Source: an uncultured Candidatus Saccharibacteria bacterium
GTDB taxonomy: Bacteria; Patescibacteriota; Minisyncoccia; Phycocordibacterales; GCA-2401445
Assembly (NCBI GenBank): GCA_964436015.1
Contig: CAYTAR010000002.1
Span: 9,521-73,520, forward strand
Reading direction: 5' to 3'
Length of the DNA stretch: 64,000 nucleotides
Part shown: piece after piece, positions 4,755 through 19,209 of the stretch
Numbering within the stretch: position 1 is the first letter of the stretch
Layout of the letters: every line of letters starts with the position of its first letter
Program-made: the position numbers and the translations under genes
The notes under the pieces: generated by a model
The model's database searches: none
The model's input: only the letters and a program-made list of their open reading frames with translations
What the model was told of the DNA's origin: nothing

Positions 4755-5855
4755 ATGAAAGTTTCTTGCTCAAGAGAAAAAATAATAGACGCTGTATACA
4801 GAACTGAAAGAGCGACGGGTAAAAATTTATCACTTTCCGTACTTTCGTGTATTTTTATAGAAGCGAAAAAAGGTACTTTATTACTCCGTGCAACAAACTT
4901 AGATCTTGGTGTGGAAATATCAATACCTGCTAAAGTTGAATCAGAAGGAGTTGTTGCTGTTCTAGGAAATCTTTTTTCTCAAGTAGTTAATTCTGCAGTT
5001 AATACCGATACACTCCTTTTTGAGTTACAGGAAGGGGGATTAGTTATTACCTCTAAACACAGTGTTACTACTCTTACTACACAACCACACGAGGATTTTC
5101 CCACTATACCTCATATTACAGAAGAATTTTCTTCCTTTTCAGCACCAGCAAATCTTCTAGTTGAAGGGATGAAATCTGTTAATTTTTGTTCATCTAGTAC
5201 TACTATTAAGCCGGAACTTGGATCGGTATATATATATCAAGATTCGGGTGAGTTACTATTTGTGGCTACTGACTCCTTTAGGCTAGCTGAGAAAAAAATG
5301 AAGGTAGCAGTAGGAGAAGATATTAAACTACTTATTCCTAATAAAAATGTAATAGAGCTCATTCGTTTTCTTTCTGGAATTACTGATGATGTTGAGGTTC
5401 GGTATACAGAAAATCAAATTTCATTCTTACATAAAAATTATTATTTCACTTCTCGTGTAATAAATGGAACTTTTCCCGATTACCGACAAATAATTCCTAA
5501 AGAATATACCACCACGGTACGCTTACTCAAACAAGATTTTCTTGATTCACTCAAGAAAGCAAGCATTTTTTCTGGGAAATTTAATCAAATTAAAATAACT
5601 ATCAATCCAAAAGAAGGTTTATTTTCTATTGCAACCACTCAGGCAGATATTGGGGCACACACTGATGCTCTTACCGCTGAGACCACAGGTGAAGAGTTTG
5701 AAGCTCATTTTAATGAAAAGTATGTTTCAGATGTATTACCACACATTACGTTAGATTCGATTGAGCTTTCTTTTGCAGGGAAAGGACGTCCGTTGGTTAT
5801 TAAACCAATTCCACACGGTTCATTTTTGTATTTAGTAATGCCAATGAATAAGTAG
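4755..5855 (+). CDS. dnaN: DNA polymerase III beta sliding clamp
   Basis: 366 aa immediately after dnaA. Typical LRATNLDLGVE, FVATDSFRLA and C-terminal PLVIKP..YLVMPMN. Confidence 0.9.
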   Translation: MKVSCSREKIIDAVYRTERATGKNLSLSVLSCIFIEAKKGTLLLRATNLDLGVEISIPAKVESEGVVAVLGNLFSQVVNSAVNTDTLLFELQEGGLVITSKHSVTTLTTQPHEDFPTIPHITEEFSSFSAPANLLVEGMKSVNFCSSSTTIKPELGSVYIYQDSGELLFVATDSFRLAEKKMKVAVGEDIKLLIPNKNVIELIRFLSGITDDVEVRYTENQISFLHKNYYFTSRVINGTFPDYRQIIPKEYTTTVRLLKQDFLDSLKKASIFSGKFNQIKITINPKEGLFSIATTQADIGAHTDALTAETTGEEFEAHFNEKYVSDVLPHITLDSIELSFAGKGRPLVIKPIPHGSFLYLVMPMNK

Positions 5856-8735: not shown

Positions 8736-10118
8736 ATGGAAAAAAGGACACAAGTAAGCGACATAGACGAATTGCTCACTAGGGGGGTTGCAACGTTTAT
8801 TGATCCGAAAGGTGAGTTCAGAAAAAAACTTGAAGGAAAAGTCGCTGGAACATATACAAAAGATATTTATATTAAGTTTGGCGTGGATCCAACTCGGCCA
8901 GATATTCACCTCGGACATGCAGTTTTACTGAGAAAACTAAGGCAATTTCAGAATATGGGGTGTAAGGTAATTTTTTTAGTGGGTGATTTTACTGCACACA
9001 TAGGAGACCCGACTGGCAAGAGTAAGGTCCGTCCTGAACTAGAACAGGCAGAAATCGAAGCCAACATGAAAACTTACCTTGAGCAAATTGGTAAAATTCT
9101 AGATACTCGACCTGAAGTATTCACGTGGATTAGAAACTCTGATTGGTTTATTAACGTAACCGATCTTGCACCGCATCAAAAACTCTCAATTAAGTATCGG
9201 ATGATATCTGTGAATCCAAACTCGTTTATAGGTAAGTCTATACTCTTTTCTGAGACGCGAATGCAAAAGACGCATCTCAAAAAAAGCGAAATTACTGCGG
9301 TAACGTTAAAAGGGATGCTTTGGACACTAAAGCATATCACCCACGCTCAGTTAATTGAACGAGATATGTTCCAGGAACGCTTAAAATCTGGACAGGAGCT
9401 ATACATGCACGAAATGTTGTATCCAGTGCTTCAAGGTGTTGATTCATACGTTTTAAGTAAGGTATATGGATCATGTGATATGGAGGTTGGGGGGAGTGAT
9501 CAAGCCTTTAATATGATTATGGGAAGGAATATTATGAAAGTAAATAATATTCCTGAACAAGCGGTATTGAGTACGCATGTACTTGTGGGGACTGACGGAA
9601 GTTCAAAAATGAGTAAAAGCTTGGATAATTACATTTGCATCACCGATGCACCTGGCGACATGTTTGGAAAAATTATGTCCATTCCGGATACGGCTATTAT
9701 TGATTACGCTATTCTTGCAACGTACTTACCAGATAGTGAAATTCAAACTATACAGAAAAAAATTACAGAAGGATCAAAAAATCCCCGGGATATAAAAGCA
9801 GAGGTTGCTGAAGCGGTCGTGTCAATTTACCACGGAGTAGCTCAAGCAAAAAAGGCCCATGAGGATTTTATCAATACATTTAGTAATAAGAGTATTCCTG
9901 AAACAATGCCTCAAATAGAGGCACAAGCAGACCAGTTCCTTATCGATGTGTTAGTTAATTCAGAGCTAGTCCCATCAAAAGCAGAGGCTCGTCGGTTGTG
10001 TAATAGTGGGGCGGTTACGTTCCTTACAGAGAATAAAGTGTGTTCTCCAAAGGATATTGTTCAAGAAGGGGAGTATAAAATTGGTAAACACCGCTTCCTT
10101 CGGGTAACTATAAAATAA
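8736..10118 (+). CDS. tyrS: tyrosine--tRNA ligase
   Basis: HIGH-type motif IHLGH, KMSKS, and a C-terminal S4-like PSKAEARRLCNSGAV. Confidence 0.85.
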   Translation: MEKRTQVSDIDELLTRGVATFIDPKGEFRKKLEGKVAGTYTKDIYIKFGVDPTRPDIHLGHAVLLRKLRQFQNMGCKVIFLVGDFTAHIGDPTGKSKVRPELEQAEIEANMKTYLEQIGKILDTRPEVFTWIRNSDWFINVTDLAPHQKLSIKYRMISVNPNSFIGKSILFSETRMQKTHLKKSEITAVTLKGMLWTLKHITHAQLIERDMFQERLKSGQELYMHEMLYPVLQGVDSYVLSKVYGSCDMEVGGSDQAFNMIMGRNIMKVNNIPEQAVLSTHVLVGTDGSSKMSKSLDNYICITDAPGDMFGKIMSIPDTAIIDYAILATYLPDSEIQTIQKKITEGSKNPRDIKAEVAEAVVSIYHGVAQAKKAHEDFINTFSNKSIPETMPQIEAQADQFLIDVLVNSELVPSKAEARRLCNSGAVTFLTENKVCSPKDIVQEGEYKIGKHRFLRVTIK

Positions 10119-10149
10119 AACCCCTCAAACTTGAGGGGTTTTATTTTAT
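10119..10149. terminator. intrinsic terminator (bidirectional shape)
   Basis: CCCCTCAA-AC-TTGAGGGG, flanked by an A-run and TTTTATTTT. Confidence 0.65.
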
Positions 10150-10417
10150 AGTTCCTCAGGCTCTACGTCTGTAAGAGGAAGGTCTTCGTCATCTTCAAGG
10201 TCTCCAAAGGTATCTAATTCATCACCCAAGTCGTCATCAATATCTGCATCAGTCGTATCATCTTCTAGTGAAAATGAATGAAATACATTTTGAATGTCTA
10301 ACTCCATAAAAATTATTTTTTTTGATAATTACGTACGAGAGAGCAACCTCTCGCTATAGTTTTATCAAATCTCGTTTTACAATGCAAATTATTGTATGGT
10401 GTGGATAAAAATAACTA

Positions 10418-10915
10418 TCACCAACGTTCACTCACCATGCAGGTAAGTGCGATTCCAATAGCGTCAAATTCATCATCGGTACGCTTTTTAGAGGGGAGTA
10501 TCAGCATGCGCGTAATCATGTGCATCATAGCGGTTTTATCTCCGCGCCCATCTCCAGTGGTTGCAACTTTTATTTGGTTTGGGGTGTATTCAAAGAGAGG
10601 AATAGAATTTTTTTGAGCGATATACATAAGCGCGCCTCGAATTTCAGCTACTTTTGTTGCAGTTTTTTGGTTTTTTTGGAAAAAAACCTTTTCTAGCGCA
10701 ATCGCAGTGATTGGAAACTCTGCAAGTTGGGATTCAATTTCCGCGCACACTGTGTATAGTCTTTTTTCAAACGGTTCCTTTTTATCAGAGGTAATGCAGT
10801 CTGAGTGTAATACTTTTTCTTTGCTGGTATGTGATTTTTTCTCAAGAACACATATCCCAAGGCGGTCATATCCAGGGTCAATACCAAGAATTAAGATGGG
10901 TGCACTAGATTGCAT
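10418..10915 (-). CDS. ruvC: crossover junction endodeoxyribonuclease RuvC
   Basis: ILGIDPGYDRLGICVLE catalytic N-terminus. I prefer the start MQSSAPILILGIDPG at 10915 over the ORF-track start at 10984. Confidence 0.85.
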   Translation of the reverse strand: MQSSAPILILGIDPGYDRLGICVLEKKSHTSKEKVLHSDCITSDKKEPFEKRLYTVCAEIESQLAEFPITAIALEKVFFQKNQKTATKVAEIRGALMYIAQKNSIPLFEYTPNQIKVATTGDGRGDKTAMMHMITRMLILPSKKRTDDEFDAIGIALTCMVSERW

Positions 10916-11435
10916 TGGTATACACGTGTTGCACCTCCTCATTATCTTCAAGATCATCAATAAGAAGAGAGAGTTTTTCTCCATCTTCCTCGGTAATAGA
11001 AACCGTATTTACCGGAGTCCACTCGGAACCATTTTTCTTAAATGCCCACGTAACCGAACCAATCGCTCCAAGTGCACAGTTGTGCTTTGAAAGAATATAT
11101 TTAACTTCCTGAGCTGCTTTATTTCTATTGCTCGTAAGAGCTTCAATAATAATGCCCACACCACCAGGTCCATATGCTTCGTACTGTATAGTTTCCATGT
11201 GAGTCGTATCAGGGGACAGTCCTTTTTTAACCGCACGCTCTATGTTGTCATTTGGAACATTCTCTTTACGTGCCCGTTCAATAGCAGATCGTAAGTTCGG
11301 AGATTCAGTGTTTCCTCCTGCTATTTTTGCTTCTGTGGTGATTGCTCGAAGGAGTTTTGAAAACACCATGCTTCTCTTCGCATCACTCGCTGCTTTTTTG
11401 TGTTTTATTTTTGACCATTTATTATGTCCTGACAT
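10905..11435 (-). CDS. yebC: YebC/PmpR family DNA-binding regulator (short, 176 aa)
   Basis: MSGHNKWSKIKHKKAASDAKR..FSKLLRAIT and YEAYGPGGVGIIIEALTSNRNKAA. Synteny with ruvC and ruvB. Confidence 0.85.
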   Translation of the reverse strand: MSGHNKWSKIKHKKAASDAKRSMVFSKLLRAITTEAKIAGGNTESPNLRSAIERARKENVPNDNIERAVKKGLSPDTTHMETIQYEAYGPGGVGIIIEALTSNRNKAAQEVKYILSKHNCALGAIGSVTWAFKKNGSEWTPVNTVSITEEDGEKLSLLIDDLEDNEEVQHVYTNAI

Positions 11436-11437
11436 AC

Positions 11438-12466
11438 CTAGAGTAACTTATCTTGTAATGACTCAGGGATAGTGAATCCTAAGTGCTCGTATGCTCTCTT
11501 TGTTGCGATACGTCCCTTTGGTGTTCGTTCAAGGAGGCCGTTTTGTATGAGGTATGGCTCATACACCTCTTCAATCGTGGCGATTTCTTCACTTGTTGCA
11601 GCTGCGATGGTACTTACCCCAACTGGCCCCCCGTTAAATTTAGAAATGATAGTTTCAAGGATAGTACGGTCAGACGCATTAAGTCCGCGTTCGTCTATTT
11701 CAAGAAGAGCGAGAGCGTCTTTGACTGTTTTTTTGGTTAAAGGAGATTTAAGTACTTGTGCGTAGTCGCGACAGCGCTTCAGTAGGTAGTTTGCTATTCG
11801 TGGAGTAAATCTGCTCCGTGAAGCAATCTCAGTAATTCCTTCTGACTCAGCAGAAATACCAAGAATACGCGAAGATCGTTCAATAATAGAACTTATTTCT
11901 TCTGTTGTATAAAATTCCAAACGAAACACACCGCCAGAGAAACGAGAACGAAGTGGGGCAGAAAGGAGTGCGATGCGTGTTGTTGCTGCAATAAGTGTGA
12001 AAGGAGGAAGTTCTAATTGTACGGTTCGTGCGGAAGGTCCTTTACCGATAATAATATCAAGAGACCCAGACTCCATGGCGGGGTACAGTACTTCTTCTAT
12101 CGCTTTATTAAGGCGGTGTATCTCATCAATAAAAAGAACATCTCCTGGTGCTAGGTTAGTGAGTATTGATGCAAGGTCGCCCACCTTTTCAATAACGGGC
12201 CCCGAAGTAATTTTAATGTTTGCGTTCAATTCGCGTGCAATGAGGTGCGCTAAGGTTGTTTTCCCAAGGCCTGGCGGACCATAAAAAAGTATGTGCTCAG
12301 GTGGGTGGTTTCGCTCTTTGGCTGCAGAGAGTAGAATACGAAGGTTTTCTTTGATTGTTTTTTGCCCAATATACTCATCCCAGAGGTGAGGACGAAGTGT
12401 TTGGTCAAGAAAACGCTCTTCTTTTATGGGGTCTTGCGTATTTTTTTTCATAGTGTATAGTGCCAT
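11438..12466 (-). CDS. ruvB: Holliday junction branch migration helicase RuvB
   Basis: Walker [12 protein letters not shown], Walker [10 protein letters not shown], and [12 protein letters not shown]. Confidence 0.95.
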
Positions 12467-12526
12467 TCTACCATTTTTAGAGAGAGGGTAGAAAAGGTGA
12501 GTTGGTAAACGCGGAAGTAAGGGTAC

Positions 12527-12555
12527 TTGACAAGATTACCAATACATGATAAGAT
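12527..12555 (+). promoter_or_regulatory. sigma70-like promoter (TTGACA-17 nt-TAAGAT)
   Basis: TTGACA at 12527-12532 and TAAGAT at 12550-12555. No plus-strand CDS lies downstream, so it may drive the ncRNA candidate. Confidence 0.4.
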
Positions 12556-12631
12556 ACTCACCAGCTACATAAACGCTCGTTAACAGATTAAAAAACCGCG
12601 AACAGAGACGGTTTTTATTTTGGAACACTAT

Positions 12632-12804
12632 CCAGAGTACAAATCTCTAAGCAATTGATCCCTTTGGGATTATTAGGGCATATCCACGAGGACGTGCTGG
12701 TTACAGCGTAATGCTGTGTACTGGAGCTATCCTTAAAGACTTGCCTCACTTTTAGTCGTCCGTATTAAAAGTATTGCTTAGAGATTTGTGCGCTGGATTT
12801 TTTT
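12632..12804 (+). ncRNA. candidate structured ncRNA (about 175 nt; 24-bp closing stem; class unknown; 6S-like size and shape is one possibility)
   Basis: CCAGAGTACAAATCTCTAAGCAAT (12632-12655) pairs with ATTGCTTAGAGATTTGTGCGCTGG (12773-12796), followed by a T7 run. An internal hairpin CAGC-GUAA-GCUG has a GNRA loop. G-U wobbles work only on the plus strand. No ORF. Confidence 0.35.
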
Positions 12805-12859
12805 ATGAACTCTAGTGCCATTCTAGCACGTAGAAAAAAAAGAAAAAGTCTTGACTTCT

Positions 12860-14578
12860 CTAAATAACACCAGTACTCGCGGCGGCATCAATGTCAATAA
12901 CGCGACGTACCTCCTTCAAAGTAGTTACCCCTTGAAGAACTTTTACCGCAGCGTCTTGTTCCATAGTAAGAATACCTTGTTTGAGTGCTGCTGCGCGAAT
13001 TTCTCGTTCACTCGGGTTTTCTCGTACAATCTTTTCAATTTCCTCATCCATTAGAATCGCTTCGTACACTCCCACACGTCCTTTGTATGCCAAATGTTCA
13101 GATTCAAGGTCTTCTTTTTCTTTCCATATTGTTTGTGTTTGAATATTAGCCAAGTCCGGACGGTTTGTTATAGTTTTTAATATCAGCGTTAGCACCTCCT
13201 TGTCTTTACCTTCAAGAGGAACTTCAACCGCATTCTCTTTATTAACCTTACGGATAAGGCGTTGTGCCATGGTTGTGGTTACCGCAGAACCAATAACTTT
13301 TGGGTTAATTCCCATATCAATTAAACGGGGGAAGGCACCTGCGGCGGTGTTGGTGTGCAGTGTTGAAAACACTAAGTGACCCGTCAGCGCAGCGTTGATC
13401 GCCATTTCCGCAGTTTCTTTGTCTCTAATTTCTCCAACCATGATAATATCCGGGTCTTGGCGGAGCGCCGCACGGAGACCTGTGGCGAATGTATACTTAT
13501 CTTTTTCAGTTTGTGTTTGAACGATTCCAGGGAGGTGATATTCAATAGGGTCTTCAACGGTCAGGATTTTAATATCTGGTGTGTGCACTTTTCGTAGGAA
13601 TGAGTAGAGTGTAGTTGTTTTACCTGAACCAGTGGGACCAGTGGTAAGTATAAGTCCGTTAGGTCGTTCAATTTCACGCATAAGCACCTCAAAGAGGTGG
13701 GGTTCAATACCGAGAGACTCAATGGTTACTTGAATTGATTTTGGATCCAAGATACGCATCACCACTGATTCGTTGTATGCTCCAGGGAGGGTTGAGGTAC
13801 GAATTTGGATTTCTGAGTCATTTACTTTAATACTGAATCGCCCATCTTGTGCGGAATTTTTTACATTTAACATAACACCAGAGATGAGTTTAATACGAGA
13901 AAGGACGAGTCGATAGGTATTGTTATCAATATGCACAATTTCTGTGAGTACACCATCCAGTCGGTAACGAAGACGGACATACTCTTCTTCCGGTTCAAGG
14001 TGGATGTCTGACGCTTTGAGCGCAAGCGCACCCGCAATTATCATTTCAAACACTTTTGATATTTTGTAGCCCTTTTTTGCCTGTATCACATCAGTAACAC
14101 GGGTAGTAATATCAGCAATAGAAGAAACCTCATTGATCATTGCTCCAATCTCATCATTTGCAATATCAAGAACACCTTCTTTACTCTCAACGGTAAGTGA
14201 AATGTCGGCGTACCTACCCCATGCTCGCTCCAAGCTCTGCTCTGACGCAACAAACATGAGTACTTCAAACCCTTTTCGTTCCAAGTCCGCCTTAACCTCT
14301 TTTAATTTTTCGTTGCTAGGATCCTCCGTTGCAATACCTATTTTCCTTCCAATAAGACTGAATGGAGAAAAGCGGTTTTCTCGCGCCACTTTTTCAGGAA
14401 CTGCACGAAGCGCATCTCCATTAATGGACATTTTTGAGAGGTCTATGTAGGGAATACTGTAGCGGTTTGAAAGTATTTGCGCTAGATCTTCTTGTTCTCG
14501 CGCGCGGAGTTCCGCGAGACGCTTATTTTGCTTTTCATCATCAAATTGAATCATTGAATTATTATACCGTGGAGCCAC
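12860..14578 (-). CDS. pilB: type IV pilus / type II secretion assembly ATPase (PilB/GspE family)
   Basis: N-terminal T2SE_N-like region, Walker A GPTGSGKTTTL, and MVGEIRDKETA. Confidence 0.85.
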   Translation of the reverse strand: MAPRYNNSMIQFDDEKQNKRLAELRAREQEDLAQILSNRYSIPYIDLSKMSINGDALRAVPEKVARENRFSPFSLIGRKIGIATEDPSNEKLKEVKADLERKGFEVLMFVASEQSLERAWGRYADISLTVESKEGVLDIANDEIGAMINEVSSIADITTRVTDVIQAKKGYKISKVFEMIIAGALALKASDIHLEPEEEYVRLRYRLDGVLTEIVHIDNNTYRLVLSRIKLISGVMLNVKNSAQDGRFSIKVNDSEIQIRTSTLPGAYNESVVMRILDPKSIQVTIESLGIEPHLFEVLMREIERPNGLILTTGPTGSGKTTTLYSFLRKVHTPDIKILTVEDPIEYHLPGIVQTQTEKDKYTFATGLRAALRQDPDIIMVGEIRDKETAEMAINAALTGHLVFSTLHTNTAAGAFPRLIDMGINPKVIGSAVTTTMAQRLIRKVNKENAVEVPLEGKDKEVLTLILKTITNRPDLANIQTQTIWKEKEDLESEHLAYKGRVGVYEAILMDEEIEKIVRENPSEREIRAAALKQGILTMEQDAAVKVLQGVTTLKEVRRVIDIDAAASTGVI

Positions 14579-14630: not shown

Positions 14631-14659
14631 TTGACATTTATAAAAAAGTATGCTATACT
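14631..14659 (+). promoter_or_regulatory. sigma70-like promoter (TTGACA-17 nt-TATACT)
   Basis: TTGACA at 14631-14636 and TATACT at 14654-14659, upstream of the 14713 CDS. Confidence 0.45.
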
Positions 14660-14712: not shown

Positions 14713-15291
14713 ATGAAATTTGTCATTGTGTTGATGATGGGTGTTCTGTTTCTTTTGCCGGTGACGGCGACGGACACAAACCAACTCTCCGCGGTTCAAG
14801 CGGAGATCGCCGAAATGAAGCTCCAAATTCAGCTTGCGAAAGCTGAGTTGGAGCTTGAAAAACTTCGCGCCCAAAAGCAGAAGTTGGTGACTCCGCCGAC
14901 GGTTGTCACCAACGAAATCTCCCCTGTTCAAGCGGAAATTAAGAATCTCAAGGAGCAAGTAGCTCTTGAGAAAGCTCGCACCGAGCTCAAGAAAGTGCAG
15001 GCGCAGAGTCAGCCTGTTCATGCAAAAGTTGCTCAGTTTCCTGAAATTGAGCAACAGCGAGATTTTTATCTCGCTGCCTCAAAGGAGGCGAAGGCGCGTG
15101 CCGATTATTACCGGCACGAAGAGCAGGCGAGTAGGTACGCTCGCCGGGCTCTTGAGGAGCAGATCTCGGGATTCTTCATTGAATCCCCACATCGGAAGTA
15201 CACTATTCCGAATACGCCTTTTAGGGCTTCGTTCCGTAGTGCAAATTACGGATTCACCGCCCGAGGCGGAGTGAAGGTGAATAGCCGATAG
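14713..15291 (+). CDS. secreted coiled-coil protein with two internal repeats
   Basis: Signal peptide MKFVIVLMMGVLFLLPVTA. Repeats are SAVQAEIAEMKLQIQLAKAELELEKLRAQ and SPVQAEIKNLKEQVALEKARTELKKVQAQ. I prefer the ATG at 14713 over the track start at 14689. Confidence 0.6.
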   Translation: MKFVIVLMMGVLFLLPVTATDTNQLSAVQAEIAEMKLQIQLAKAELELEKLRAQKQKLVTPPTVVTNEISPVQAEIKNLKEQVALEKARTELKKVQAQSQPVHAKVAQFPEIEQQRDFYLAASKEAKARADYYRHEEQASRYARRALEEQISGFFIESPHRKYTIPNTPFRASFRSANYGFTARGGVKVNSR

Positions 15292-15332: not shown

Positions 15333-15364
15333 ATTGTCGGGTTTGTGTGTGCTAGAATGCGTGT

Positions 15365-15793
15365 ATGAGAGAGATAGGGAGTGTTGAGGAAATGCGAACG
15401 TTTGCGAGCAAGGTGGTACAAAAGCTCACCAGAGGTTCTACTGCAACCGTTCTTGCGCTGTCAGGTGATTTGGGGGCGGGGAAAACCACATTTGTACAAG
15501 GACTTGCGCGGTCACTTGGTACGAATGTAACCATCACTAGTCCGACGTTTGTTATTCTCAAACGGTATCCTCTGAGTAAGCAAGCGTTTGATACTCTGAT
15601 CCATATAGACGCATACCGGCTTAACAGTAGTAGCGAACTACAAAAGTTAGGTTGGGAAGAAATACTCAAGGACGCGGGGTCGCTTGTGGTTCTGGAGTGG
15701 CCTGAACGGGTGTCCGAGTGTATTCCTGATAATGCGCAGACTATTACTTTTACGCATAAAAATGAGGGTAGTCGAATAGTGTCATATGAGTAA
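15365..15793 (+). CDS. tsaE: tRNA t6A37 biosynthesis ATPase TsaE
   Basis: P-loop LSGDLGAGKTTFVQGLAR, SPTFVIL, HIDAYRL. Confidence 0.8.
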   Translation: MREIGSVEEMRTFASKVVQKLTRGSTATVLALSGDLGAGKTTFVQGLARSLGTNVTITSPTFVILKRYPLSKQAFDTLIHIDAYRLNSSSELQKLGWEEILKDAGSLVVLEWPERVSECIPDNAQTITFTHKNEGSRIVSYE

Positions 15794-19161: not shown

Positions 19162-19209
19162 AATGTATAAATGATATAATTGGTTTACCAATTATATCAT
19201 TTATACATT
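19162..19209. repeat. perfect 48-bp palindrome (23-bp arms, 2-nt centre)
   Basis: AATGTATAAATGATATAATTGGT-TT-ACCAATTATATCATTTATACATT. Confidence 0.9.

Follow-up and report, generated by a model that had tools for sequence, protein, structure and literature searches.

6S RNA binds the RNA polymerase (RNAP) holoenzyme that carries the primary sigma factor and templates short product RNAs, and its hallmark is a large, largely unstructured central bubble that mimics an open promoter. It was described as a rod of about 160-200 nt whose closing and apical stems are interrupted by bulges or loops (PMC8876501), and the shortest known 6S RNA has about 160 nt (PMC9130861). In Actinobacteria, the RNAP core is bound by Ms1, a lineage-specific RNA which is defined by synteny, is missed by the 6S model and carries extra hairpins (PMC9130861). 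In the literature searched, we found no description of a CPR 6S RNA or of a structured RNA like the one reported here, and very few descriptions of Patescibacteria non-coding RNAs beyond the universal ones. The ultrasmall Patescibacteria (CPR) account for a very large share of bacterial diversity; they have hardly been cultivated, their genomes are tiny, and few regulators can be recognised in them. The locus described here lies between ruvB and pilB in a 64,000-nt stretch of DNA (the window), and it encodes a structured non-coding RNA about 170 nt long (12630-12805, plus strand), whose family keeps its position and strand in Parcubacteria/Paceibacteria-type Patescibacteria. It is almost certain that this is a real, conserved sRNA gene on the plus strand; the transcription, the ends and the abundance of the RNA were all inferred from the sequence.

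A TTGACA-17-TAAGAT promoter had been reported here in an initial annotation made from the window's letters. The element was recovered (TTGACA at 12527-12532, a 17-nt spacer and TAAGAT at 12550-12555), and it also carries a TG at 12547-12548. It was the sole sigma-70-like site in 12300-13000. The match alone was within chance (1 found vs 1.1 expected); among the 94 homologous loci, however, 85 have a promoter of the type TTGACAT-N14-TaTGCTAnnnT on the RNA strand, at a distance of 8-185 nt on the upstream side of the RNA, and this recurrence places the promoter beyond chance. Transcription is predicted to start near 12562, and the primary transcript is probably about 245 nt long including a dispensable leader. 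Within the leader, a U-run reaching 12621 comes after a weak hairpin rich in A and U (AAAAAACCG...CGGUUUUU, 12590-12616). Folded alone it reached -11 kcal/mol (z = -1.85), and the RNA domain was undisturbed by it in the 245-nt fold. The leaders of relatives ranged from about 0 to 180 nt and were unrelated in sequence. The hairpin with its U-run (12590-12621) was rejected as an attenuator or terminator, as it is weak and was missed by the terminator scan; a looser scan (hairpin plus U-run) flagged just 20 of 44 long leaders. At the other end, the T7 run noted after the long helix was confirmed, and together with the closing stem P1 it forms an intrinsic-terminator-like 3' end. A U-rich tail immediately after P1 was found in 51 of the 94 homologues, and others have a separate downstream terminator (e.g., L011 and L017). 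The locus thus has its own promoter and a 3' end made of a stem and a U-run, in agreement with the earlier proposal of an independent structured plus-strand RNA. Elsewhere in the window, a promoter of the matching type (14631-14659) drives a protein gene.

Table 1. Positions of the RNA gene, its helices and the flanking repeats, counted from the first nucleotide of the window.
Feature	Position	Strand	Description
13-mer direct repeat TAGTGCCATTCTA, copy 1	12458-12470	-	minus-strand reading TGgTAGAATGGCACTA, extended -10-like
Sigma-70-type promoter with extended -10	12527-12555	+	found by sequence scan; recurs in homologues
5' leader (predicted)	12562-12629	+	variable, outside the conserved fold
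P1, 5' strand	12630-12655	+	closing stem; inner 13 nt AUCUCUAAGCAAU (12643-12655) conserved in sequence
P2 hairpin	12656-12672	+	UGAUCCC-UUU-GGGAUUA; small, variable
Px, 5' strand	12676-12680	+	GGGCA; partner 12742-12746
P3 arm	12689-12733	+	covariation
Px, 3' strand	12742-12746	+	UGCCU; partner 12676-12680
P4 hairpin	12749-12771	+	CUUUUA...UUAAAAG; variable loop, contains CGUCC
P1, 3' strand	12773-12798	+	closing stem (AUUGCUUAGAGAU...)
U7 tail	12799-12805	+	with P1, intrinsic-terminator-like 3' end
13-mer direct repeat, copy 2	12813-12825	-	TGcTAGAAT; downstream of the RNA, antisense-facing

Folding of the plus strand gave -76.5 kcal/mol, compared with -41.2 ± 4.4 kcal/mol for shuffled sequences (z = -8.0). 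As shown in Table 1, the fold is closed by P1, which in the window has 26 nt per arm (92% paired) around an interior of 117 bp. The initial annotation had drawn this helix between 12632-12655 and 12773-12796. A recount by hand gave the same 22 Watson-Crick pairs, one U-G (12638/12790) and one A-G (12636/12792), and the helix proved two pairs longer, extending to 12630/12798. Its small hairpin AUCCC-UUU-GGGAU is real and is P2, and its CUGG/CUGG pairing (12697-12700 with 12721-12724) matches a conserved part of P3. In the P3 arm, AGGA (12689-12692) pairs with UCCU (12730-12733), with C12693 bulged and a UA bulge at 12728-12729; GUGCU (12694-12698) pairs with GGAGC (12723-12727), and G12700 pairs with C12721. 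Two details were revised. The apical loop, which had been read as a GNRA tetraloop, is the pentaloop GUAAU of a variable hairpin, ACAGC-GUAAU-GCUGU (12703-12717). The proposed GGACG/CGUCC helix was absent from both the MFE fold and the family consensus, in which GGACG belongs to the AGGA-C of P3 and CGUCC to the loop of P4.

A covariance model, R1, was built from 19 relatives, and the family alignment comprised 94 sequences with a consensus fold. The R1 search found a single copy, no more and no fewer, in every one of 94 loci from Patescibacteria at 78-142 bits, and the match in the window covered 12630-12802 (plus strand) with 139.7 bits. Weak matches were obtained at the equivalent place in the more distant loci L019 and L040, no match was obtained in 60 non-CPR ruvB loci, and a pattern scan of viral contigs gave matches in 2 contigs only. 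In essentially every locus with enough flank, ruvB was upstream and divergent and pilB was downstream and convergent, which also held in 75 loci fetched by the RNA pattern alone. Measured from P1 to P1, the core spans 123-177 nt across the family, with a median of 153 nt.

In the consensus fold, P1 has 26-34 bp with a conserved 1x1 mismatch; its inner 13 bp are conserved in sequence and its outer part covaries freely. It leads into a tight three- or four-way junction, where P2 and P4 are two small hairpins of arbitrary sequence. The irregular arm consists of Px, an internal loop of about 3x3 (about three mostly unpaired positions per strand between Px and P3) and P3, which carries an AGGA-C/CUA-UCCU bulged helix plus a GG/C element. 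AGGA, GG, C and UCC were invariant or near-invariant even in 19 genome-derived sequences that had been chosen independently of the RNA sequence. Inner P1 and the bulged helix of P3 were invariant or nearly so, and the junction and internal-loop strands were poorly conserved. Of 92 distinct homologues, 85 have a hairpin of at least 3 bp at the position of P2, and these hairpins are unrelated to one another in sequence and loop; L014 and L016-L018 lack it, and in variants of this kind only 3-6 nt are left unpaired on the junction's 5' side. Loop sequence varied in P2, in P4 and at the apex of P3, UUCG being the commonest apical loop, with UUUA and GUAAU also found.

Conservation of the helix in relatives, on which the initial annotation had made its RNA depend, was found together with covariation. 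The consensus pairs were formed in 93.8% of the cells, compared with 84.0% in shuffles and 37-54% when the partners were slid by 1-3 columns. Double changes were present in 30 of the 38 pairs, a number reached by none of 500 shuffles, and a MAFFT alignment that had not been fitted to any structure gave compensatory changes in 29 of 38. Among the helices, P1 was paired in 97.6% of cells (double changes in 15 of 18 pairs), P3 in 92.3% (7 of 11) and P4 in 84.7% (4 of 5). The columns of Px (64-67 with 167-170), which lay outside the structure used to fit the alignment, showed as many as six pair types, and each pair had 33-49 double changes. This covariation indicated that Px is formed in the selected state. 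In L001 and L002, inspection by eye suggested that the P4 loop forms a pseudoknot with the 5' strand of the junction; this was discarded, as it was absent in other subgroups (e.g., L146 and L132).

Family-wide, GU/UG pairs outnumbered AC/CA pairs by 501 to 81, so the RNA is placed on the plus strand of the window, the strand that the wobble pairs had been said to favour. A minus-strand transcript had been raised as a caveat, and it could be a pilB 3' UTR or terminator, or a long structured ruvB 5' UTR starting from TGcTAGAAT (12821-12830). The minus strand folds well (-64.3 kcal/mol, z = -7.6), pilB and ruvB are both encoded on it, and in the window it has an extended -10-like element close to the RNA on the downstream side. 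This element belongs to the motif that had been noted near 12469 and 12822 and that does occur twice, as a 13-mer. The opposite-strand -10-like motif was found downstream of the RNA in 9 of 94 loci only, and the second copy in the window is therefore lineage-specific. Together with the wobble counts, the conserved promoter in the plus orientation, R1 scores of only 20-56 bits on the opposite strand and the lack of a U-run after the stem on the minus strand, this makes a minus-strand origin very improbable, and the caveat is largely resolved.

The wobble counts also bear on the idea that the locus is constrained as DNA, either as the terminal inverted repeats (TIRs) of a miniature mobile element with the 13-bp repeats as its target-site duplication, or as paired protein-binding sites. 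The locus does contain a 26-bp inverted repeat around a 117-bp interior and exact 13-bp direct repeats around a 355-bp block, and the sequence conservation of the arms could reflect a shared DNA-binding protein. DNA-level constraint, however, would equalise G-T and A-C, against the 501 and 81 counted, and covariation extends to the internal helices (P3, Px and P4). MITEs occur in many dispersed copies, and their TIRs are directly flanked by the target-site duplication. Here every locus had a single copy, always in the same syntenic position, and neither the rest of the 64-kb window nor related loci totalling about 1.2 Mb contained another. The direct repeats enclose the promoter, leader and RNA and not the inverted repeat, being 160 nt and 15 nt from its arms. 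A MITE was rejected on these grounds, and we give hardly any credence to a DNA-level feature of either kind.

The gap between ruvB and pilB had been called free of ORFs. It contains three minus-strand ORFs of 30-44 aa, but none of them had a counterpart conserved at the homologous position in relatives and no conserved peptides were found, so the RNA locus is regarded as non-coding. On the plus side, the next gene is the convergent 3' end of pilB, and the RNA is therefore not cis-regulatory. A cis-regulatory leader or riboswitch was rejected, since no same-strand gene lies downstream and the nucleotides of the junction and loops are poorly conserved. An oriC or DnaA-box cluster at this site was also rejected: the gap has no DnaA boxes and the GC skew does not switch at 12.5 kb, and the replication origin is more likely nearer the start of the window, beside dnaN. 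The conserved arm sequence, considered as a target pairing site, had no occurrences beyond chance elsewhere in the 64-kb window.

Searches for known families were negative. With Rfam 15 (4227 families) at gathering scores, the window and 16 loci gave no match. At E <= 10, the 441-nt gap and 27 homologous loci gave no 6S and no credible match, the only matches being chance ones to a snoRNA, a miRNA and a tracrRNA fragment over the promoter. Divergent syntenic homologues (L019, L040, L014 and others), taken as possible intermediates towards 6S, were also without a 6S signal, and ARAGORN with the Rfam tRNA and tmRNA models found nothing in 12300-13000. The 6S and SRP matches that the initial annotation had looked to Rfam for were thus not obtained, nor was any other family. 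The RNA family is absent from Rfam 15.

The best reading of these data is a new family of stand-alone, trans-acting, protein-binding sRNAs. No gene follows on the strand of the RNA, the RNA is a rod whose two ends are tied into a long stem, its promoter is of a near-consensus housekeeping type, and its conserved nucleotides are nearly all in helices and bulges and not in loops or junction strands. From these four features together, we consider it fairly probable that the RNA acts in trans by binding a protein, and not through base-pairing, ligand sensing or catalysis.

That the RNA is strictly linked to ruvB, and that its -35 overlaps the ruvB start codon in many loci, argues against a purely trans role, and the RNA could instead act locally. 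It would then be mainly a regulator of ruvB, and possibly of pilB, through opposed promoters, mutual exclusion or antisense pairing, with the structured body merely stabilising and terminating the transcript. At 52 of 76 loci, ruvB takes its in-frame ATG from the CAT within the TTGACAT of the RNA, and 48 of 82 leaders have an opposite-strand TGCTATAAT/TGCTATACT, where chance would give about 2.5, at a fixed spacing of 24-25 or 46 nt from the RNA's -10. With the start-codon overlap and the opposed -10s, the ruvB and RNA transcripts would overlap head to head, and the two promoters offer a clean natural case of overlapping convergent promoters. The window, however, is uncoupled. Its first 13-mer closely precedes the start of ruvB (ATG at 12451 or 12466), in a TGnTAGAAT-then-ATG layout that also precedes tsaE (15350-15367), and the ruvB start with its TGgTAGAAT is 50-75 nt outside the RNA promoter. 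The leader in the window has no opposite-strand -10, and yet the RNA body is conserved in full (139.7 bits). Moreover, a role as stabiliser and terminator leaves the invariant bulges, the covariation of four helices and the fixed helix spacing unexplained, the overlapping leader is the least conserved part, and the linkage, invariant as it is, may just mirror the equally conserved pilB-ruvB order. A mainly local regulator is therefore improbable in our judgement.

For the preferred trans-acting RNA, the most likely single partner would be RNAP, and the RNA would be a lineage-specific decoy of the 6S/Ms1 type. The segment from the junction to P3, which is weak, A-U/G-U-rich and of fixed length, may be the part that RNAP opens, and the bulged helix of P3 may serve as the recognition element. 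Two non-continuous helical arms with the termini in a closing stem match the general description of 6S RNA (PMC8876501). Against a decoy of RNAP, the central bubble is missing, P2 and P4 fill the junction strands, Px is formed, some members are short (123-140 nt core), and the Rfam 6S models were silent at E <= 10. The decoy mechanism specifically is possible but rather doubtful, and the explanation as a whole, a conserved sRNA family with an RNAP-decoy role, is held tentatively.

The partner may also be a protein other than RNAP, with the RNA acting as a scaffold, a decoy or in a chaperone-like way. It could be a dsRNA-specific or bulge-recognising protein, as in Y RNA-Ro or SRP RNA-Ffh, or the RNA could be a stable RNA processed by RNase III. 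RNase III prefers duplexes of at least 20 bp, and the near-perfect 26-34-bp P1 is a plausible substrate. The conserved helices and bulges, the variable loops and the locked termini count here as they do for the RNAP decoy, the 13-bp inner P1 and the AGGA-C/CUA-UCCU helix resemble two protein-recognition sites, and the missing central bubble suits such a partner better than it suits 6S. As stated, however, the idea is not specific. The genes within about 10 kb of the RNA are all housekeeping genes (ruvC, yebC, ruvB, pilB, tsaE, polA, holA-like, tyrS, PBP and dnaN) and include no candidate partner, and no RNP RNA, Y RNA and SRP included, was matched in Rfam. We regard a trans-acting RNP RNA with another partner as somewhat unlikely.

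Taken more broadly, the chances are nearly even that the family is a new class of CPR housekeeping RNA, either a 6S replacement without a pre-opened bubble or an RNP subunit, which is physically wired to the promoter and start codon of ruvB in most lineages. The RNAs of such a class would be rods built around a four-way junction, in which two helical sites are recognised by sequence, and in its 6S-replacement form it would bind RNAP in genome-reduced Parcubacteria/Paceibacteria-type episymbionts. An sRNA with a strong promoter and a constrained structure, kept at one locus throughout a class, is a candidate for a global regulator or for a subunit of an RNP. Should RNAP be its partner, the principle of 6S and Ms1 would be extended to CPR bacteria with a new architecture, and if it has another partner, a new RNP would be defined. 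The covariance model, the 94-sequence alignment and the consensus fold can be used for genome annotation, for look-up in groundwater metatranscriptomes and for the design of pull-downs.

Among the known systems, SRP RNA has a domain IV with symmetric and asymmetric loops and a GNRA/GGAA apical tetraloop. The 4.5S or small bacterial SRP RNA was rejected, since the apical hairpin is the most variable part of the new RNA and no Rfam SRP match was found. Like 6S (ssrS; RF00013, and 6S-Flavo, RF01685), the new RNA is a stand-alone sRNA with a long imperfect closing stem formed from both ends, a second irregular arm capped by a variable loop, and mainly structural conservation; it also shares a strong housekeeping-type promoter, possible 5' and 3' extensions and a gene order conserved within the taxon. 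The overlap in size is partial: the family core of 123-177 nt lies mostly below about 160-200 nt, with the window copy inside this range and some members (123-140 nt core) shorter than the shortest known 6S RNA. In place of an open bubble the new RNA has a tight junction, P2, P4 and the covarying Px, and its inner closing stem is conserved in sequence. With no large open central bubble and no match to the 6S models, the '6S-like' label proposed initially fits just the rod shape and, in part, the size, and a 6S-like function is conceivable.

Ms1 resembles the new RNA as a lineage-specific, rod-like sRNA with conserved flanks and extra short hairpins to which the 6S model is blind, but it has about 300 nt, keeps the central bubble and has been shown to bind RNAP, and the new RNA has no sequence or model similarity to it. 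Bacterial Y RNA (YrlA-type, Ro/Rsr) likewise has a long terminal stem with a sequence-conserved helix, which binds protein in Y RNA, a multi-helix module on top and a U-rich 3' end. The new RNA differs in lacking the tRNA-like conserved loops, its hairpin loops being variable; no Y RNA or YrlA was matched in Rfam, and no rsr/TROVE gene was present in the 20 kb examined. With the orphan motifs of the Breaker/Weinberg type, the new RNA shares covariation support, restriction to a taxon, a gene-like arrangement that is not a 5' leader and an unassigned function, and it is set apart from them by its place outside Rfam 15 and its origin in Patescibacteria.

The DNA between ruvB and pilB carries a gene for a structured small RNA (12630-12805, plus strand), and this gene is almost certainly real. 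The initial annotation, which had proposed an orphan promoter and a structured RNA there, was borne out with support beyond what the sequence alone could give. The promoter TTGACA-17-TAAGAT was present at 12527-12555, with a TG at -15/-14, and was the single sigma-70-like site of this kind within 12300-13000. The long helix was genuine as well: its arms, 12630-12655 and 12773-12798 (26 nt, 92% complementary), are separated by 117 nt and directly followed by a T7 run. The RNA fold reached -76.5 kcal/mol on the plus strand (z = -8.0 versus dinucleotide shuffles) and -64.3 kcal/mol on the minus strand. The apical loop, first read as a GNRA tetraloop, is the pentaloop GUAAU, and the proposed GGACG/CGUCC helix was absent from both the MFE fold and the conserved fold. 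The leader from the promoter to the closing stem P1 folded weakly alone and left the RNA domain of the window undisturbed; leader sequences of different lineages were unrelated. The gap, described as free of ORFs, does hold three minus-strand ORFs of 30-44 aa, none of which is conserved, and a small-ORF comparison with relatives found no conserved peptide encoded by the RNA locus.

Features of the window and helices of the RNA (window positions)
Feature	Position	Strand	Remarks
dnaN	4755-5855		
Inverted repeats	10106-10153; 19162-19209		two, 23 nt, perfect, 2-nt spacers; the first with a GAGGGG/CCCCTC core and flanking A and T runs
RuvC ORF	10418-10984	-	
YebC/TACO1-family ORF	10905-11435	-	176 aa, short for its family; 80-nt overlap with RuvC ORF as listed
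ruvB	ORF to 12466, likely start ATG at 12451	-	Pfam RuvB_N, AAA_lid_4, RuvB_C
ruvB–pilB gap	12467-12859		between ruvB and PilB-type T2SSE ATPase
P1			closing stem, 26-34 bp; outer part covaries freely
Junction			tight, after P1; linkers ~1-3 nt
P2			small hairpin of arbitrary sequence; in 85/92 sequences, absent from L014 and L016-L018
Px	12676-12680 / 12742-12746		alignment columns 64-67 and 167-170; covariation
Px, small internal loop, P3			irregular arm
P4			hairpin CUUUU...AAAAG, loop variable
PilB-type T2SSE ATPase	12860-14578	-	
Promoter divergent from pilB	14631-14659	+	TTGACAT-N14-TATGCTATACT, perfect
192-aa ORF	14713-15291	+	driven by the preceding promoter; signal-peptide-like N terminus; internal 33-nt repeat (14775-14807 / 14907-14939); no Pfam match
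tsaE start region	15347-15367	+	TGcTAGAAT, 6 nt, ATG; layout as upstream of ruvB
SAM-I (S-box) riboswitch	28250-28349	-	64.1 bits; in a Patescibacteria genome
tRNA gene cluster/repeat regions	34780-35240; 36570-36950; 38550-38960; 42070-42870		six CTTAGTAACTTGTGACC boxes, both orientations
Repeated tRNA 3' halves	34835; 35011; 35217		CGATTCTTACCGGGGGCACACG, three copies
Tandem duplication	42137-42436 / 42510-42809		373 nt, perfect

The closest RuvB relatives among one-genome-per-species GTDB contigs were Patescibacteria MAGs (66-78% identity) labelled Minisyncoccia, Nomura-, Ryan-, Zambryski-, Kaiserbacteria and similar. A homologous element was detected upstream of ruvB on the opposite strand in 18/18 such loci by BLASTN, nhmmer or inspection, each with a TTGACA-N-TGnTAnnnT promoter on the element's strand. 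A DNA pattern made from the two stem arms only retrieved at least 120 additional contigs from metagenomes, with groundwater a frequent source, and just two "viral" contigs. The covariance model R1, built from 19 sequences with a MAFFT alignment and an RNAalifold consensus, gave exactly one strong match per locus in 94 sources (78-142 bits; 139.7 bits at 12630-12802, plus strand, in the window), while the opposite strand of these sites scored merely 20-56 bits. No match was found in 60 ruvB loci of other phyla. Weak R1 matches stood at the corresponding place in two loci of Parcubacteria type that are more distant (L019, 31 bits; L040, 22 bits), whose stems have the same architecture and entirely different sequences.

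Conservation and covariation of the helix in relatives, a check named beforehand, were confirmed in the 94-sequence alignment. Standard pairs filled 93.8% of cells, compared with 84.0% for shuffled partners and 37-54% when the partner was slid by 1-3 columns. Both-sided changes occurred in 30 of the 38 pairs, and none of 500 shuffles attained any observed measure. On a structure-blind MAFFT alignment, compensatory changes were already seen in 29 of the 38 pairs. Strong covariation was seen in Px as well: each pair had 33-49 double changes and up to six pair types, although this helix was no part of the model to which the alignment had been fitted. The inner 13 bp of P1 (AUCUCUAAGCAAU/AUUGCUUAGAGAU) are conserved in sequence, and the P3 motif AGGA-(C)-NNNNU-GG ... 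C-UGGNN-C(UA)-UCCU is almost invariant, capped by a variable hairpin with UUCG as the commonest loop. Outward from P3, positions 1-2 are often paired, 3-5 mostly unpaired and 6-12 mostly paired, and the 3' strand from P3 to P4 measures 14-15 nt in all 92 distinct sequences. The RNA defines a structured sRNA family of Patescibacteria that is both new and well supported.

The argument that the wobble pairs work only on the plus strand held family-wide: all helices together contained 501 G-U/U-G cells versus 81 A-C/C-A cells. This indicates that the structure was selected as RNA on the window's plus strand, and neither on the minus strand nor as duplex DNA. The promoter recurred in 85/94 loci, 8-185 nt upstream of the R1 match. 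In the window a second promoter of this type, the one divergent from pilB, drives a protein gene, so the type is the lineage's general strong promoter. A U-rich tail immediately follows P1 in 51 of the 94 sequences, and others have a separate terminator slightly downstream.

Known identities were also compared. Neither the window nor 16 loci gave a match to any Rfam 15 family at the gathering score. With permissive filters (E <= 10), no 6S, SRP, Y RNA, RNase P or tmRNA was found in the 441-nt gap and 27 homologous loci, in agreement with the initial remark that SRP, RNase P and tmRNA signatures were lacking; ARAGORN was negative on the gap. A 5' leader was rejected because no gene follows the RNA on its strand, and a MITE because the element is a single copy at a fixed site. 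The gap is not a replication origin either, since it has neither DnaA boxes nor a skew switch. The cumulative GC-skew minimum lies at the window start and dnaN is nearby, so that the chromosomal origin is probably located in the first 4 kb or shortly ahead of them, and the RNA gene would thus lie ~8-12 kb from oriC.

In essentially every locus with enough flank, including the 75 retrieved by the RNA pattern alone, ruvB was upstream and divergent and pilB downstream and convergent. In 52/76 loci the in-frame start codon of ruvB, on the opposite strand, coincides with the CAT in the RNA's -35 (TTGACAT). Moreover, an opposite-strand extended -10 (TGCTATAAT or TGCTATACT) occurred in 48/82 leaders (~2.5 expected by chance) at a fixed distance of 24-25 or 46 nt from the RNA's -10, and TGCTATAAT is likely the ruvB promoter. 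These results indicate that in most relatives the RNA and ruvB promoters point towards each other, giving transcripts with overlapping 5' ends (for example L002:2795-2835, L132 and L116, compared with window 12451-12560). A local role of the RNA in ruvB control, for which this interlock speaks, is a main rival reading and is judged improbable. The window is an exception to the interlock, with the ruvB start 60-75 nt outside the RNA promoter. Here the -10-like element noted as a repeated 12-mer proved to be an exact direct repeat of 13 nt, TAGTGCCATTCTA (minus strand TGnTAGAATGGCACTA), at 12458-12470 and 12813-12825, bracketing a 355-bp block of promoter, leader and RNA. Both copies read on the minus strand as an extended -10 followed by ATG GCA CTA, as if the ruvB promoter and start region had been duplicated in this lineage only. 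The caveat of a minus-strand transcript is largely resolved, as only 9/94 loci had any -10-like motif at the second repeat position.

Between the RNA promoter and P1, the leaders of one subgroup (L089, L090, L098, L112, L116, L118, L143, L146, L149, L152 and L155) contain two or three tandem DnaA-box-like repeats (TTATCAACA / GTATCAACA / CTATACACA), 11-12 nt apart, and after them another -10-like element, TAGTATAAT; nothing comparable occurs in the window. The repeats point to DnaA-type control, of either ruvB or the RNA, in this subgroup. Elsewhere in the window, the layout before tsaE and ruvB suggests that this genome has mRNAs with no leader or almost none, and the two inverted repeats are probably bidirectional terminators between convergent genes. 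The YebC/RuvC overlap and the short YebC could reflect a frameshift, a start-site problem or a truncated gene. The tRNA repeats, the duplication and the CTTAGTAACTTGTGACC boxes may have been left by integrative elements or by some other repeat system.

6S RNAs are rod-shaped and ~200 nt long, and their two helical arms, which are not continuous, enclose a relatively unstructured central bubble; the apical arm contains a -35-like region, the 3' strand of the bubble a -10-like one, and the template for product RNAs is the 5' strand of the bubble together with the neighbouring strand of the closing stem (PMC8876501). The shortest known member has ~160 nt (PMC9130861). Like them, the Patescibacteria family has a strong promoter, two interrupted arms and termini locked in a closing stem, and it is conserved in structure rather than in sequence. 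Its sizes reach the 6S range only at their upper end, and some members, with a core of 123-140 nt, fall below the ~160-nt minimum. Because the defining open bubble is missing, the 6S covariance models fail and some members are too short, the "6S-like" label does not extend to 6S membership. A trans-acting, protein-binding role is favoured, with modest confidence. An RNA polymerase (RNAP) decoy mechanism can be put forward only tentatively; RNAP might be able to open the segment from the junction to P3, which is weak (A-U/G-U-rich) and constant in length. A protein partner other than RNAP is a main rival reading and equally tentative. Ms1 of Actinobacteria is a lineage-specific RNAP-binding RNA with extra hairpins that was missed by the 6S model and recognised through synteny (PMC9130861), and by analogy a 6S- or Ms1-like function of the Patescibacteria RNA is possible.
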